Positions 23,022 to 28,348 of a stretch of DNA of 64,000 nt are shown one piece after another. The notes under the pieces were generated by a model. That model ran no database searches. It was not told where the DNA came from and was given only the letters and a program-made list of their open reading frames with translations. The position numbers and the translations under genes are program-made. Position 1 is the stretch's first letter. Every line of letters begins with the position of its first letter. Source of the DNA: an uncultured Rhodobacteraceae bacterium (lineage in GTDB: Bacteria > Pseudomonadota > Alphaproteobacteria > Rhodobacterales > Rhodobacteraceae); NCBI GenBank assembly GCA_947489445.1, contig CANLDN010000008.1, positions 14,614 to 78,613 of the forward strand. The letters run 5' to 3'.

Positions 23022-23747
23022 ATGAGTGATACCGGGAAGACGACCTATAAACGGGTCATGCTCAAGATTTCAGGCGAGGCGCTGATGGGCGATACCTCTT
23101 TCGGGCTGCATCCGCCGACGGTGCAGCGGGTGGCTGCCGAGGTGAAGACGGTTCACGACATGGGCGTTGAGATCTGCATGGTGATCGGCGGCGGCAACAT
23201 CTTTCGCGGGTTGCAGGGCTCTGCCCAAGGGATGGAGCGGACGACGGCGGATTACATGGGGATGCTGGCCACGGTGATGAATGCGCTGGCCATGCAGTCC
23301 GCGTTGGAGGAGTTGGGTATTCACACGCGGGTGATTTCAGCGATTACGATGAACGAGGTGGCCGAACCCTATATTCGCCGCCGCGCTGTGCGTCACCTTG
23401 AAAAGAAACGGGTTTGCATTTTTGCAGCCGGGACGGGGAACCCCTATTTTACCACGGATACGGCAGCGACATTGCGCGCCAATGAGATGGCTTGCGAGGC
23501 GATTTTCAAGGGCACTAAGGTGGATGGCGTGTATGACAAGGACCCCGCCAAGCATGCTGATGCGGTCCGCTATGACAATGTGACTTATGATGAGGTGCTG
23601 CAAAAGCATCTGGGTGTGATGGATGCGTCGGCCATTGCGCTGGCGCGCGACAATGATTTGCCGATCATCGTGTTTTCATTGGATGAACCGGGCGGGTTCC
23701 GGGGCATTCTGGCGGGCGAGGGGACCTATACGATTGTCAAAGACTGA
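23022..23747 (+). CDS. pyrH: UMP kinase
   Basis: [33 protein letters not shown] and DGVYDKDP motifs. Confidence 0.98.
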
Positions 23748-24744
23748 CCCGAAAGAAAATATCGGGCGCGGTTGGGCTGTCACGGGTTTTGCCATTGGTC
23801 TGTTGGGTTTGGTCGCAGCGGTCGCATTCGTCTGGATCGAAACGGCGCGGATTGACCGGACCGTTGTTGGGTTAATGCAGACCGAGCAGGAGTTGCGGGC
23901 CAGCTATGCGGCGCTGCAGGCGGAGTATTCGGATACGCTGCGCGCGTTGGACAATGCAAATCGCGCGATGTCGGATGCCTCAACCGCATTTGCGGCGGAG
24001 GTGGACGGTACCCGTGATGCGGATCAGTTGGTGGCCCGCATGACGGCATGGTCGGTTTTGACGTCAGGGACCGCAGGTGATCTGGGAAAATCGGCGGCGT
24101 TTGAATATCTGGCGGATCAGGGCGAGGCGTTTCAGCATCTTGATCTGTCCTGCCCGGCGTTCGGCGCAGATGAGACCCGTTGTCTGGCACCGGTTCGCAT
24201 TGATCGCCTGCGTCTGAGTGATGCCTATTTGGATCATATCGACTTTCGTCATGCGCAGTTTGTGCTTTTGATGATGACAGGCGGGACCCTGAACGATGCG
24301 TCGATGGACTATAGCTTGTTCCGGTCGATCCGCCTGAACGAAACACGGGTGTTGGATGTGATGGCCCGAGGTGCCAGGTGGTATGATGTTGATGTGACTG
24401 GTGGTACGATACAACGTTCGGACTTTACCGGCGCCCGGATGGGCAGCGGTCGCTGGTCGGATGTGCGTATCTCTGACACTGTTTTTGATAATGCGCTGGT
24501 CGAATATGTGCAGTTTGATGATGTGCGGTTCAGTGGGGTTTCGTTTCGCGGTGCTGGCCTGTCGGGCACCCGGTTCGAAAATATGCGCGGGTTTGAGGAT
24601 GTCGATCTGACTGATGTCTGGGCATGGAGCGATCAGATGCCGGTGGGTATTGATCCCGATTTGGTTGCGCAATGCGTATTTCCGGCCGATCGTATTGAAG
24701 GCAGTTCGCCTGTACGTGGTGAACGCCGCCCGGCGGATTGTTGA
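23734..24744 (+). CDS. Membrane-anchored pentapeptide-repeat protein
   Basis: N-terminal TM helix ([18 protein letters not shown]), coiled-coil-like segment, then ~25 degenerate pentapeptide units. TTG start at 23734 chosen from the upstream GAGGGGA SD; it overlaps the pyrH stop. Confidence 0.75.
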
Positions 24745-24765
24745 GCAATGGGCGCGTGGACCGCG

Positions 24766-25260
24766 CTAGTTGTTGGTTTCGATATTCGCGCGTATGACCG
24801 GTTCGAGGTAGATAAAATCGTCCGGCGCGCCTGTAAAATTGCTTAAGGTCAGCCGGTTGTTCGAAAAATGGCTGAGCTGATAGCGCTCTAGAATGTTGTC
24901 GGGGAGTGCGCGGTCTTGGGGATCGACAATGCGCCAAGGGCCATCGCAGCGCTGCTTGGCATCTCGATATTCGCCCCGAAAGATACCCGGATCGTCTGCG
25001 TTATCGCGGCATATCTTGGCCCAGCCGAACCAGTCAATTCCGCCAATCTGAATGAAATCATCCGGTATCGGCTTGTTCCAGGTCAATGCGACCGCAGTGA
25101 TATCTTCCGGAAATGCGTCGAAATCTGTGGTGATCGTTGTGGCGCATCCGTCAATCATGGGAATGGCTGTGTGTTGGGTGCTGGGTCGGAGTGCCAAAAC
25201 AGCCGCAAGAGTAACACATGCGGTCGCGACAATAGCAATTATGCGCCCTTTCGGTGTCAT
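24766..25260 (-). CDS. Membrane-anchored hypothetical protein, candidate immunity protein 2 (paralogue of 25297-25782)
   Basis: N-terminal hydrophobic helix; shares DF..F.EDI.A....W..PIP.....IGG.D..G.A with the upstream gene; last gene of the putative effector operon. Confidence 0.7.
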   Translation of the reverse strand: MTPKGRIIAIVATACVTLAAVLALRPSTQHTAIPMIDGCATTITTDFDAFPEDITAVALTWNKPIPDDFIQIGGIDWFGWAKICRDNADDPGIFRGEYRDAKQRCDGPWRIVDPQDRALPDNILERYQLSHFSNNRLTLSNFTGAPDDFIYLEPVIRANIETNN

Positions 25261-25296
25261 CTGTCATACGACACAGTTTGATAAGTCATGGCAACG

Positions 25297-25782
25297 CTAC
25301 GGCGCGTATTCTATGTTTTGAGGCTGTGTCGGTACAAGATAGAACCAATCGCGTGGCGGGGTTGTTGTATCTTGACCGACGAGGAGTTGCTCATTTTCAA
25401 TGTAGGATATGACATAGTTACCGGCTTTTATATCGGGCAGCGGGTTGTCTGATGGATGTTCATATCGAAGAGGTCCGATGTAGCGAACGCGACTGTTCAG
25501 AAAATGCCCTTGGAAGATATTCGGTGGATCGTCGTCATTGCGCCAGGCCAATGCATAGCCGATTTCATCCACCCCACCAATGAGGTGAAGTTCAGGGGGG
25601 ATGGGTGCCGACCATGCCTGTTCAATCGCAGCGATATCCTCATCAAAGGGCACGAAATCAGCCATTTCTTCTGACGACTTGAGGAATGTTTCGGGCATCG
25701 TGCTCTCCTTTTTGAAGAAAACAAAAAAAACTGCCACGACCAGCGCGGCTGCACCGGCAAGAATGACTTGCTTACCGGACAT
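25297..25782 (-). CDS. Membrane-anchored hypothetical protein, candidate immunity protein 1
   Basis: MSGKQVILAGAAALVVAVFFVFF anchor; ATG overlaps the stop of the effector-like gene by 11 nt. Confidence 0.7.
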   Translation of the reverse strand: MSGKQVILAGAAALVVAVFFVFFKKESTMPETFLKSSEEMADFVPFDEDIAAIEQAWSAPIPPELHLIGGVDEIGYALAWRNDDDPPNIFQGHFLNSRVRYIGPLRYEHPSDNPLPDIKAGNYVISYIENEQLLVGQDTTTPPRDWFYLVPTQPQNIEYAP

Positions 25783-26602
25783 AAAGACCTGCCGGGAATG
25801 CAAAGCCGCTTGCGACTGTCCCCGAAGACGACACGGTCAGCGCGCGGTAAGTTGTTTGAAGCTGGATGATTTGGCGCGCAGGAACTTCAATTGCGGTGCC
25901 AGCGGGGGCATCCATCGTCCCGCCAACAATCGTTCGCAGGATAATATCCAAATCGGGTGCGGCAGAGACATTGCCGTTGACGCCTGATTGGGACGCGACC
26001 TCCAATGCGAAGGTGAAGCAGTGATTGCCGCTGACATCATACGCCGCTGCTGTGCGCGCAGCGACGGCGGCTTTGCGTGTTTCGGCGAATGCTTTCATTG
26101 TATCGAATGAACCGTTGGGCACTTTGACATATACGGCATTGAAATCGTACGGCCCGCCATTCGTGCGTGTCAAAGCCTGCATCAACGCGGCCCACGGCCC
26201 AGCATTGGGGTTGTCATCTTGATCGAATGTCATTGTCACGCTAGCCGGACCGGCGACACTGCGCACCGCGCCAAAATTCCCGCCATAGCGCCCATATTCG
26301 TAGTAAGCGACTTCACCGGTTAATCCGTTGTAAAAAGCGACACCGGCGTGACCCAGCCCAAGCACCCGTACCCCGGACGCATTGGAACTGCCGATTGATA
26401 ATGGTGGATTCGAGCGCGGTTGCGTGAAGGTTTCACGTACTGAGCGTTCTTCGTCGATGGCGGCCCGTTCCAGCAAGCTCATTTCCCCACGGATCGCATC
26501 GTATGGGATTGTGATTGGCTGATTGGGATAAACAATCGGGATCACGGCGTCACATGGTCCCGGGCAGCGGGCGACGGGATCGTCTGGTGCGTCATCCTGC
26601 AT
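25772..26602 (-). CDS. Putative papain/permuted NlpC-P60-fold toxin (TseH-like T6SS effector candidate)
   Basis: VIPIVYP, LGHAGV (His85), YYEYGRY (Glu102) and YD..GNHCFTFA (Cys195); lies directly after a DUF4123-like gene (TAATG overlap) and before two immunity-like genes. Confidence 0.65.
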   Translation of the reverse strand: MQDDAPDDPVARCPGPCDAVIPIVYPNQPITIPYDAIRGEMSLLERAAIDEERSVRETFTQPRSNPPLSIGSSNASGVRVLGLGHAGVAFYNGLTGEVAYYEYGRYGGNFGAVRSVAGPASVTMTFDQDDNPNAGPWAALMQALTRTNGGPYDFNAVYVKVPNGSFDTMKAFAETRKAAVAARTAAAYDVSGNHCFTFALEVASQSGVNGNVSAAPDLDIILRTIVGGTMDAPAGTAIEVPARQIIQLQTTYRALTVSSSGTVASGFAFPAGLYVR

Positions 26603-27567
26603 TACGATGATACATCCTTGCTGAGTTCATTTTTCAATCTCATGGCCCGTACCAAATCTGGTGCACCTTCGCTTTCGTCGAGTGCCTTCACCACGCGCGT
26701 GTCAGTCAATCCTGCGGGCAAAGGCGCCACACAGTCAATAACCATACCGATTGCCTCGCGCGACCGCAGGGGGATCCCCAAGACAGCTTGGTAAAGTGCG
26801 GCGGCCTGTTCTTTGCCCAATTGATGGTCTTGTGTGAGATGGGTAATCATATCACGTCGAAATCGCGCTTCAGTCACATGCGAAAGTGCCCGGAAAATCT
26901 CCGCGCTGAGGGTGATCTGCAACGGGGCAGGTGGCCCGGAGGAGGTGTTGTCCAGCGACAGGCGCTGGCAGGTATCGCCAAGTGTGATGAATGCGTTCAC
27001 CATCCCGTTTCCGAAAAATGCCTGCCGTTGTGTTCCGGTCATCGCCATAAGATAGGCGGTCACGAAATCGGTTTCCCAAAACCGAAAGAAGAACCATTTG
27101 CCGCTGGTATCTTTGATCCTTGTAAAATGTCTTAGATGTTTGACAACGGTCCCGAGATCCTCCGCGCTATGTAGAAAGAACCCGGCTTTCGGCCAGAACG
27201 CCGTCAGTACGTTTGCGTCGGTGATGAGACCCTTTGAAAGATCGTTGGTTCCATCGAGTGCTACGATCCAAGGCCCATTTTCGCTCAATTCATCGCGTGC
27301 TTTTCCTTGGAACAGGCTTTGATGGGCCATACGGCTATTTGCAAGTATCTCGGGCAGATGTGTTATGATTGCGCCGTCAAGAACCGCATAGGTGTTTATC
27401 CCGTTTGGTACGTCAAACAGCACGGACCATAGATGTGTTTGCGTTGCGTCCTGATCATCTGAGCAGGGATGCGCATCCTTTATCGTGTCAATCAAAAGCT
27501 GCGGCGTTTGATCAATACCGATTTCCAAATCCGGCGCTGAAGCAGTCATTATATTGCTATCACTCAA
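26602..27567 (-). CDS. DUF4123-domain protein (T6SS effector chaperone/adaptor family)
   Basis: YAVLDGA, SLFQG.A.DEL...GPWIV.L, W...GFFLHS...L..V.KHLRHF and GKWFFFRFWE match the DUF4123 signature as recalled. TTG start is uncertain (alternative ATG 27549). Confidence 0.8.
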   Translation of the reverse strand: MSDSNIMTASAPDLEIGIDQTPQLLIDTIKDAHPCSDDQDATQTHLWSVLFDVPNGINTYAVLDGAIITHLPEILANSRMAHQSLFQGKARDELSENGPWIVALDGTNDLSKGLITDANVLTAFWPKAGFFLHSAEDLGTVVKHLRHFTRIKDTSGKWFFFRFWETDFVTAYLMAMTGTQRQAFFGNGMVNAFITLGDTCQRLSLDNTSSGPPAPLQITLSAEIFRALSHVTEARFRRDMITHLTQDHQLGKEQAAALYQAVLGIPLRSREAIGMVIDCVAPLPAGLTDTRVVKALDESEGAPDLVRAMRLKNELSKDVSS

Positions 27568-27784
27568 CTTTCCCTGTCACGTTAGGCAGTCTGGTGGGGC
27601 CTGTCAAAGGTTGCTCAGCTTTGGGTCAGATTTGTGCGGAACGTTCTGTTTTGTATCGGCAGGCGGCATTGCGGGCTAATGAAAAAATGCGAAAATGCTC
27701 TGGATATCTCGACCTATACAATAGTCAGCTATTCCCGTAAAACGATGAAAAGCCGGGCAAAGCCCGTGAAGTGGAAGAGCAGAA

Positions 27785-28348
27785 ATGTCAGACGAATTTG
27801 AACTTGATACCGATGATCTGTCCCGCCGAATGGATGGGGCAATTGCCAATTTGCGCACGGAACTTGCGTCATTGCGCACTGGTCGCGCATCCGGGTCCAT
27901 GCTCGAACCTGTCATGGTGGATGCCTATGGATCGATGACCCCGATCAACCAAGTGGGGACCGTGAACGTGCCAGAGCCGCGCATGGTGACGATCAATGTC
28001 TGGGATAAGGGCCTTGTCGGCAAGGTCGAAAAAGCCATTCGCGAAAGCGGGTTGGGGATCAATCCGCAGCTGAACGGTACGATCATCATGCTGCCCATTC
28101 CTGAACTGAACGAAGAGCGGCGCCGCGATCTGACAAAGGTGGCCGGTCAATATGCCGAAAGTGCCCGGGTTTCGATCCGAAATTTGCGCAAGGACGGTAT
28201 GGATCAGATCAAGAAAGCCAAGGCGGATGGCATGTCGGAGGATGACCAGAAGTTCTGGGAAACCGAAGTGCAGGAGTTGACTGACGCCCACATCAAGACA
28301 GTTGATGATACGCTTGAAACCAAGCAGGCCGAGATCATGCAGGTCTGA
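27785..28348 (+). CDS. frr: Ribosome recycling factor
   Basis: [28 protein letters not shown] and ARVSIRNLR motifs. Confidence 0.98.

Follow-up and report, generated by a model that had tools for sequence, protein, structure and literature searches.

A TseH-family effector gene coupled to a DUF4123 adaptor gene and two putative immunity genes on an accessory island of a Rhodobacteraceae genome

How should a gene be read which encodes a cysteine hydrolase without a signal peptide, which directly follows a gene for a DUF4123 protein, and which has no vgrG beside it? The question is raised by a locus of an uncultured Rhodobacteraceae bacterium (GenBank assembly GCA_947489445.1), found within a stretch of 64,000 nucleotides that is described here as ‘the window’ (contig CANLDN010000008.1, positions 14,614 to 78,613 of the forward strand; coordinates below are those of the window). 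The gene is an open reading frame (ORF) on the minus strand at 25772-26602, and its product belongs to the TseH family of type VI secretion system (T6SS) effectors. The answer that we favor, with a probability of roughly 0.8, is that this protein is an adaptor-loaded, VgrG-carried T6SS cargo hydrolase, one that would act in the periplasm of target cells and would be blocked in kin by membrane-anchored immunity proteins. The effector gene and the residues upon which the argument turns are these:

25772..26602, minus strand: TseH-family cysteine-hydrolase effector, 276 amino acids (aa), as based on the Pfam TseH model, PDB 6V98, an AlphaFold2 model and Foldseek
26552..26566, minus strand: C13-P-G-P-C17 ‘cap’, directly followed by invariant D18 and the first beta-strand (IPIVYP), conserved in the subfamily
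26348..26350, minus strand: catalytic His85 codon, GLGHAG motif, invariant, aligning with TseH His64
26297..26299, minus strand: Glu102 codon, YYEYGRY motif, third triad residue, invariant, compare TseH Glu81
26018..26020, minus strand: catalytic Cys195 codon, NHCFTF motif, invariant, aligning with the 6V98 Cys

The ORF is translated into 276 aa without internal stops. A sequence-only reading of the locus had quoted the motifs VIPIVYP, LGHAGV, YYEYGRY and YDVSGNHCFTFA, had placed the codons of His85 (26350-26348) and Cys195 (26020-26018), and had remarked that His precedes Cys. All four motifs are present in the translation, the codon positions are arithmetically correct, and the order of the two residues is as described. 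The N-terminus (MQDDAPDDPVAR... / MQDDAPDDPVARCPGPCD...) similarly is as that reading had it, i.e., acidic and carrying C13-PGP-C17, with no hydrophobic signal-like segment or signal peptide seen in the translation.

Residues 20-206 match the Pfam family PF25218, “Type VI secretion system effector TseH-like”, at 65.5 bits (E=7e-18; gathering cut-off 27 bits), with the match spanning profile positions 1-161 of 167, and the same match is recovered in a scan of the whole genome. Among all PDB sequences, phmmer returns one real match (E=7.8e-6), which is 6V98, the Vibrio cholerae TseH ‘cysteine hydrolase’, and in that alignment the LGHAGV, YYEYGRY and N-x-C-x-TF motifs of the two proteins line up. 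An AlphaFold2 model built on 42 homologues (pLDDT 92.4, pTM 0.89) gives a consistent picture: 6V98 is the only significant Foldseek match to that model in the PDB (E=5.7e-10, probability 1.00), at a TM score of 0.86 as normalised to the target. The resemblance to TseH that had been pointed out upon first reading, along with the Foldseek comparison that had been proposed as its check, thus come out in its favor by profile, by sequence and by fold. The effector, that is, is a bona fide member of PF25218 in terms of profile, of triad order and spacing, and of TseH fold, and the observation as judged from sequence is far beyond chance, given the Pfam TseH score and the invariance of H85, E102 and C195. 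What is new here is one more TseH-family effector. The family itself is known, with a Pfam model and a crystal structure, and homologues already carry TseH-like labels in public databases.

His85, Glu102 and Cys195 are invariant both across 42 homologues (43-78% identity) and across a 17-sequence alignment of the wider family, the latter having as further invariants D18, G84, A86, G87, Y100, G104, R105, Y106, G111, V113, Y188, F198 and P241. The published triad of TseH is Glu81-His64-Cys172 (PMC11160734), with H64A having been used experimentally as the inactive mutant. The triad as originally proposed for the effector matches that of TseH in order and also in spacing, i.e., His to Glu and His to Cys distances of 17 and 110 residues here versus 17 and 108 there.

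The original proposal went further, placing the effector among permuted NlpC/P60 enzymes. Permuted NlpC/P60 and LRAT-like papain-fold enzymes indeed have their catalytic His before their Cys along with a polar third residue, and this much is seen in the effector. The effector differs from them, however, in matching neither the NlpC_P60 nor the LRAT Pfam model at E<=1, nor, by Foldseek against the PDB, any NlpC/P60 or LRAT structure besides TseH. TseH has been described as an NlpC/P60 cysteine endopeptidase (PMC12663445), and it is by way of that literature, i.e., by analogy, that the effector might carry the permuted NlpC/P60 label. Of the class assignment, then, the residue order stood, and membership in the superfamily would follow by way of TseH.

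The effector gene does not stand by itself but instead is the second of four head-to-tail minus-strand genes, all of them intact ORFs. The other three are the following:

26602..27567, minus strand: DUF4123 (Tap/TEC-type) adaptor, 321 aa (Pfam PF13503, E=1.3e-24)
25297..25782, minus strand: immunity gene 1, 161 aa with its start taken as ATG 25782, as based on the junction, an AlphaFold2 model and a conserved downstream position
24766..25260, minus strand: immunity gene 2, 164 aa, paralogous to immunity 1 but diverged from it (34% identity, E=3e-26)

The adaptor, which besides PF13503 has a weak NCBIfam Tla1 match, ends in a TAA stop that overlaps the ATG of the effector (TAATG). The most plausible ATG of immunity 1 in turn lies within the 3' end of the effector gene, for an 11-nt overlap, and 36 nt separate immunity 1 from immunity 2. 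Scans for promoters and terminators did no better than on shuffled sequence.

Immunity proteins against an effector which acts on the envelope would be predicted to face the periplasm. The AlphaFold2 model of immunity 1 (pLDDT 88) has a membrane helix at residues 5-23 that is followed by a beta-rich domain, for which no fold relative was found in the PDB (best E=0.47), and neither immunity protein has a family in Pfam or NCBIfam. Once correct starts are taken, an N-terminal hydrophobic helix or anchor is seen in both proteins and in all 13 homologues. Membrane-anchored and presumably periplasm-facing proteins such as these fit the envelope-targeting role that had been suggested for the effector.

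The two immunity genes appear to have different histories. In a maximum-likelihood tree, immunity 1 clusters, with support of 95/93, with the immunity proteins from the loci of the closest effectors, whereas immunity 2 falls outside of that clade and therefore is not a recent tandem duplicate. Immunity 2 may be either an old paralogue or instead an acquired immunity against variant effectors. It also retains a pair of cysteines frequent in the family, one in an MxxxC motif after the anchor and one in GWAxxC, both of which immunity 1 has lost; this pair could form a periplasmic disulfide.

That these genes belong together is seen from their relatives. A word-indexed search gave 46 proteins besides the effector itself, of which 44 were at E<=1e-37 and most were full-length (43-78% identity). 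Their sources are for the most part marine Rhodobacterales (Litoreibacter, Jannaschia, Paracoccus, Thioclava), along with some Gammaproteobacteria (Nitrincola). Genomic context was compared over 13 related loci, a set which comprises the close subfamily only and thus leaves the V. cholerae locus outside. In 12 of the 13 a homologous DUF4123 gene is found upstream of the effector, and in all 13 a homologous immunity gene is found downstream. The Nitrincola locus is a full Hcp-VgrG-PAAR-DUF4123-TseH-immunity-VasX cluster.

A candidate means of delivery is present within the same genome. On another contig there is a T6SS core cluster with Hcp, TssA, TssB, TssC, TssE, TssF and TssG as identified by Pfam, together with a 911-aa ORF which, as assigned without a Pfam scan, is taken for ClpV. 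The genome has three full-length VgrG genes and six DUF4123 genes. As only one of those six adjoins a vgrG, adaptor-effector modules at a distance from vgrG would seem to be the norm in this strain. The other five modules are located outside of the window:

C2:436042-438157, C14:61248-63225, C9:72083-75017, C12:95502-97706 and C1:910558-917868 (contig:positions): five further DUF4123 modules

In one of them the DUF4123 gene is preceded by VgrG and followed by a VasX_N toxin of 904 aa and then by immunity. At least four effector candidates beside the further DUF4123 genes (400, 198, 603 and 254 aa) are without a Pfam family, and one of 244 aa has a weak, below-cut-off Pfam match to the putative metallopeptidase family DUF6782. 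DUF4123 is rare in the class, being found in 7 of 401 genomes, and six copies in one genome are unusual.

What we infer from the above is secretion of the effector by an adaptor-VgrG route, a periplasmic site of action, a substrate in the envelope, and neutralisation by the immunity proteins. The effector would be produced together with the DUF4123 adaptor that is encoded directly upstream. DUF4123 adaptors connect effectors to the C-terminal helix-turn-helix tails of VgrG (PMC11582642), and by analogy with those that have been characterised, the N-terminal lobe of this adaptor would dock on one of the three VgrG proteins, at the C-terminal tail, while the C-terminal lobe of the adaptor holds the effector. 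The T6SS encoded on the other contig would then drive the spike, so loaded, into a Gram-negative neighbour. Once in the periplasm of that target, Cys195, His85 and Glu102 would together cleave an envelope substrate, resulting in envelope damage and lysis, with the most likely substrate being peptide or amide bonds of peptidoglycan, as has been proposed for V. cholerae TseH. Sister cells would be protected by the two inner-membrane-anchored, periplasm-facing immunity proteins encoded downstream, of which immunity 1 would be the cognate, lineage-matched partner and immunity 2 a paralogue, either older or acquired, by which variant effectors may be covered. V. cholerae TseH, consistently, is toxic only in the periplasm and is neutralised by TsiH (PMC4453574).

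Several points weigh against this reading. No vgrG or PAAR gene adjoins the effector module or is found elsewhere on its island, the vgrG genes being located on other contigs. The juxtaposition of H85, E102 and C195 is deduced from superposition upon 6V98 and from alignment of motifs. The immunity proteins have no BLAST similarity to small ORFs found downstream of canonical short TseH-likes, a comparison outside of which TsiH itself lies. In the TseH literature, the substrate even of TseH is not chemically defined, and the nearest structural neighbour of TseH outside of its own family is a lipoprotein N-acyltransferase (Lnb) domain (PMC11160734), for which reason peptidoglycan as substrate is not certain.

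That last point is what speaks for a different chemistry with the same fold and the same delivery, i.e., for an acyl-hydrolase or acyltransferase, LRAT- or Lnb-like, that would act on envelope lipids or lipoproteins. V. cholerae TseH, however, causes cells to round and burst, and lyses permeabilised cells (PMC4453574), it was later described as an endopeptidase, as noted, and its family-invariant motifs are fully held in common with the effector, all of which leaves acyl chemistry unlikely. It could be asked as well whether the module is delivered at all. A stranded remnant without a cognate VgrG, kept mainly since its immunity proteins protect from TseH-like toxins of neighbours, would explain the lack of an adjoining vgrG or PAAR gene, the presence of two immunity genes of which one is not lineage-matched, and also the split state (ORFs of 120 and 181 aa) of the equivalent adaptor gene in Jannaschia pohangensis. 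Yet here none of the four ORFs is broken, their translation is coupled, no catalytic or family-invariant residue has been lost, and the genome retains a full T6SS core, three VgrG, and five other DUF4123 genes, four of which also lack an adjoining vgrG, suggesting that such an arrangement is normal in the strain. A remnant we consider distinctly improbable, more so than an acyl-acting enzyme.

Least probable by far, indeed barely credible, is that the effector is no T6SS substrate but rather a housekeeping or otherwise exported cell-wall hydrolase. Its secretion by the T6SS is, to be sure, deduced from context. Against an exported enzyme, though, stand its lack of a signal peptide, the tight linkage to DUF4123 and immunity genes in a dozen genomes, and the Nitrincola copy, which sits inside of a complete T6SS auxiliary cluster. 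Nor is the protein a housekeeping one, since only one of 61 sampled species of the genus has it (and one of 301 sampled genera of the family). Cargo delivered by way of adaptor and VgrG, with peptidoglycan as the probable substrate, is accordingly the reading which is retained in what follows.

A full-length relative should be distinguished from a protein that possesses just the catalytic core. An exhaustive profile search gave 538 cluster representatives at E<=1e-3, of which only 15 were at E<=1e-30, and most of the matches listed cover the core at 78-210 only, many of them being the C-terminal part of proteins 600-3400 aa in length. As strong representatives are few and most matches are core-only, the full-length architecture constitutes a small subfamily. 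Compared with canonical short TseH-likes (~200-230 aa), this subfamily has insertions at ~38-77 and ~208-238. A new domain was suspected in the last 70 residues, an idea which was dropped because P241 and the helix that follows it are family-wide, leaving only ~208-238 as a subfamily insertion. The sequence-only reading had pointed also to toxin domains at the C-termini of RHS proteins. That remark fits the core-only matches at the ends of 600-3400-aa proteins, as well as reported Rhs/YD-repeat homologues of V. cholerae TseH (PMC4453574).

Short TseH-likes in four genomic contexts (~207-231 aa; loci L080-L083) are isolated genes, with no T6SS gene within 6 kb. In two of the four a small ORF (109-120 aa) directly follows. 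Planctomycetota and Polyangiaceae are represented among the matches, and one may ask by what route such proteins are delivered.

What of the cysteine pair at the N-terminus? Among the 41 homologues with an intact N-terminus, C13 and D18 are each found in all 41 and C17 in 34, with some pair of cysteines (CxxxC, CxC or CxxC) kept in 38. Canonical short TseH-likes begin instead at “D(V/I)VIPIVFPDY”, without Cys, and have a DUF4123 neighbour in none of the four genomic contexts. A second long clade (P0058, P0310) has an acidic leader as well, along with a Cys that precedes the invariant Asp by three residues, and in two of its three contexts there is an upstream DUF4123 gene, each one scoring over the Pfam threshold. 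The N-terminal Cys cap thus is found only in two long clades, most of whose loci have an upstream DUF4123 gene. Of the initial suggestion that CxxxC is an adaptor-binding or loading signal, both the conservation of the motif and its co-occurrence with DUF4123 clades are upheld. The signal role itself is a correlation, and a phylogenetically confounded one, with which the idea is plausibly compatible.

More specifically, leader and CPGPC cap might be an element that is recognised by the C-terminal lobe of DUF4123, or else a thiol or metal switch that would be quiet in the reducing cytoplasm of the producer and set in the oxidising periplasm of the target. This we offer tentatively, as a proposal considerably more apt to be wrong than right. 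The sole subfamily locus without DUF4123 is one from a gammaproteobacterial metagenome-assembled genome (L034, 5561-6762). Its effector has a longer leader with a single-Cys variant of the cap, ACEELLFD, and is preceded by an unannotated 102-aa ORF, beside a RiPP (MbnB/DUF2063) cluster; an alternative loading route may be used there.

A broader version of the idea, in which an N-terminal CxxC or CxxxC would mark DUF4123 cargo in general, was tried and rejected. Within the present genome such a motif occurs in four of six effectors downstream of DUF4123 (P ~2.5e-5 versus a 3.7% background), but in other genomes it fails, occurring in 3-4 of 30 loci (P ~0.1), and those 3-4 loci are essentially one Tle2-like family. 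Cys pairs near the N-terminus are seen in four of the further effector candidates of this genome, e.g., MGCETGNCPTC and GSVCQTCARP.

How, then, does the module compare with what is already known? The closest system is that of V. cholerae TseH (VCA0285; PDB 6V98), which together with TsiH belongs to the Aux3 cluster. The two effectors share PF25218, a fold (TM 0.86), triad order and spacing, the GLGHAG, YYEYGRY and N-x-C-x-TF motifs, a C-terminal P-x-x-x-(I/M)-x-x-L-(Q/R) helix, the absence of a signal peptide, and an immunity gene downstream. They differ in that identity is ~18% (Foldseek) and in length, 276 aa here versus 223 aa for TseH, with the insertions at ~38-77 and ~208-238, the acidic leader and the CPGPC cap found here. 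They differ too in genetic setting, i.e., DUF4123 upstream rather than the PAAR-TTR gene VCA0284, two immunity genes of a family without a Pfam or PDB relative, and an island away from any vgrG. Having DUF4123 as its upstream gene, and immunity proteins without a Pfam family or BLAST similarity to the small ORFs behind short TseH-likes (TsiH itself being outside of that comparison), the module is not an Aux3-type PAAR-TseH-TsiH one.

A second point of comparison is the cargo of DUF4123 (Tap-1/TEC/Tla) adaptors, which includes Tle lipases, VasX/MIX toxins, Rhs proteins, alpha/beta hydrolases and MATE. As with these, a coupled, same-strand adaptor gene is found directly upstream, adaptor subfamily and effector family vary together, and in Nitrincola the homologue lies within the canonical order of vgrG-PAAR-DUF4123-effector-immunity. 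Unlike with these, no vgrG is adjacent here; that is, the conserved neighbouring adaptor is present, but a vgrG upstream of it is not. A survey of DUF4123 neighbourhoods, covering selected gamma- and beta-proteobacterial genera only, distinguished five effector classes, with TseH not among them (PMC11582642).

The four genes are situated on an accessory island, one which also carries a gene of the opposite orientation:

23748..27784, no strand assigned: accessory island, ~4 kb, between pyrH (23022-23747) and frr (27785-28348), as delimited by gap comparison with same-genus genomes
23800..24744, plus strand: pentapeptide-repeat membrane protein (Pfam Pentapeptide matches)

The gap between pyrH and frr is 4037 nt here versus 119-844 nt in six same-genus genomes, where it contains none of these genes. 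GC content of the island is only slightly below that of its flanks, and neither an integrase, a tRNA nor a further flanking repeat could be made out at it. An imperfect 17-nt direct repeat (23723, 27711) was considered as an attachment site but was rejected because its right copy is a conserved frr-upstream element, one that is present also in island-free relatives. The pentapeptide-repeat protein has an N-terminal membrane helix and is of uncertain start (TTG at 23803 or 23809, or ATG at 23875), the first ~42 codons of its long ORF being merely an alternative frame of pyrH. Its gene converges with the toxin operon and is missing from every related TseH module; it is a passenger of the island and lies outside of the conserved module.

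J. pohangensis (L031/L037, 6818-9412) has its own DUF4123-TseH-immunity module at the same frr/pyrH site, with an effector that is 51% identical, and two same-genus relatives have unrelated 0.8-kb inserts there. The pyrH-frr intergenic region, as seen from these sequences, looks like a recurrent landing site, and transfer of such cassettes between genera could take place through homologous recombination within the highly conserved flanking genes. As to the split J. pohangensis adaptor (L031, 7084-8001), only the first of its two ORFs has a partial DUF4123 match, and the gene may be frameshifted and decaying.

What does the locus mean for the family? Conceptually little is new, as a Pfam model, a crystal structure and “TseH-like” database labels exist already. 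What is documented is a long-form TseH subfamily, mostly of marine Rhodobacterales along with some Gammaproteobacteria, which has a conserved Cys-pair cap, which is linked to a DUF4123 adaptor instead of a PAAR protein, with a delivery route that presumably follows from that linkage, and which is paired with an uncharacterised immunity family without a relative of solved structure. A Roseobacter-group genome, in addition, is seen to keep several DUF4123 modules away from any vgrG. Were the cap to be an adaptor-recognition tag, then it would supply a compact handle for studying how DUF4123 proteins choose their cargo, and TseH-like hydrolases would be a sixth class of DUF4123 cargo, one with a short and transplantable loading tag.

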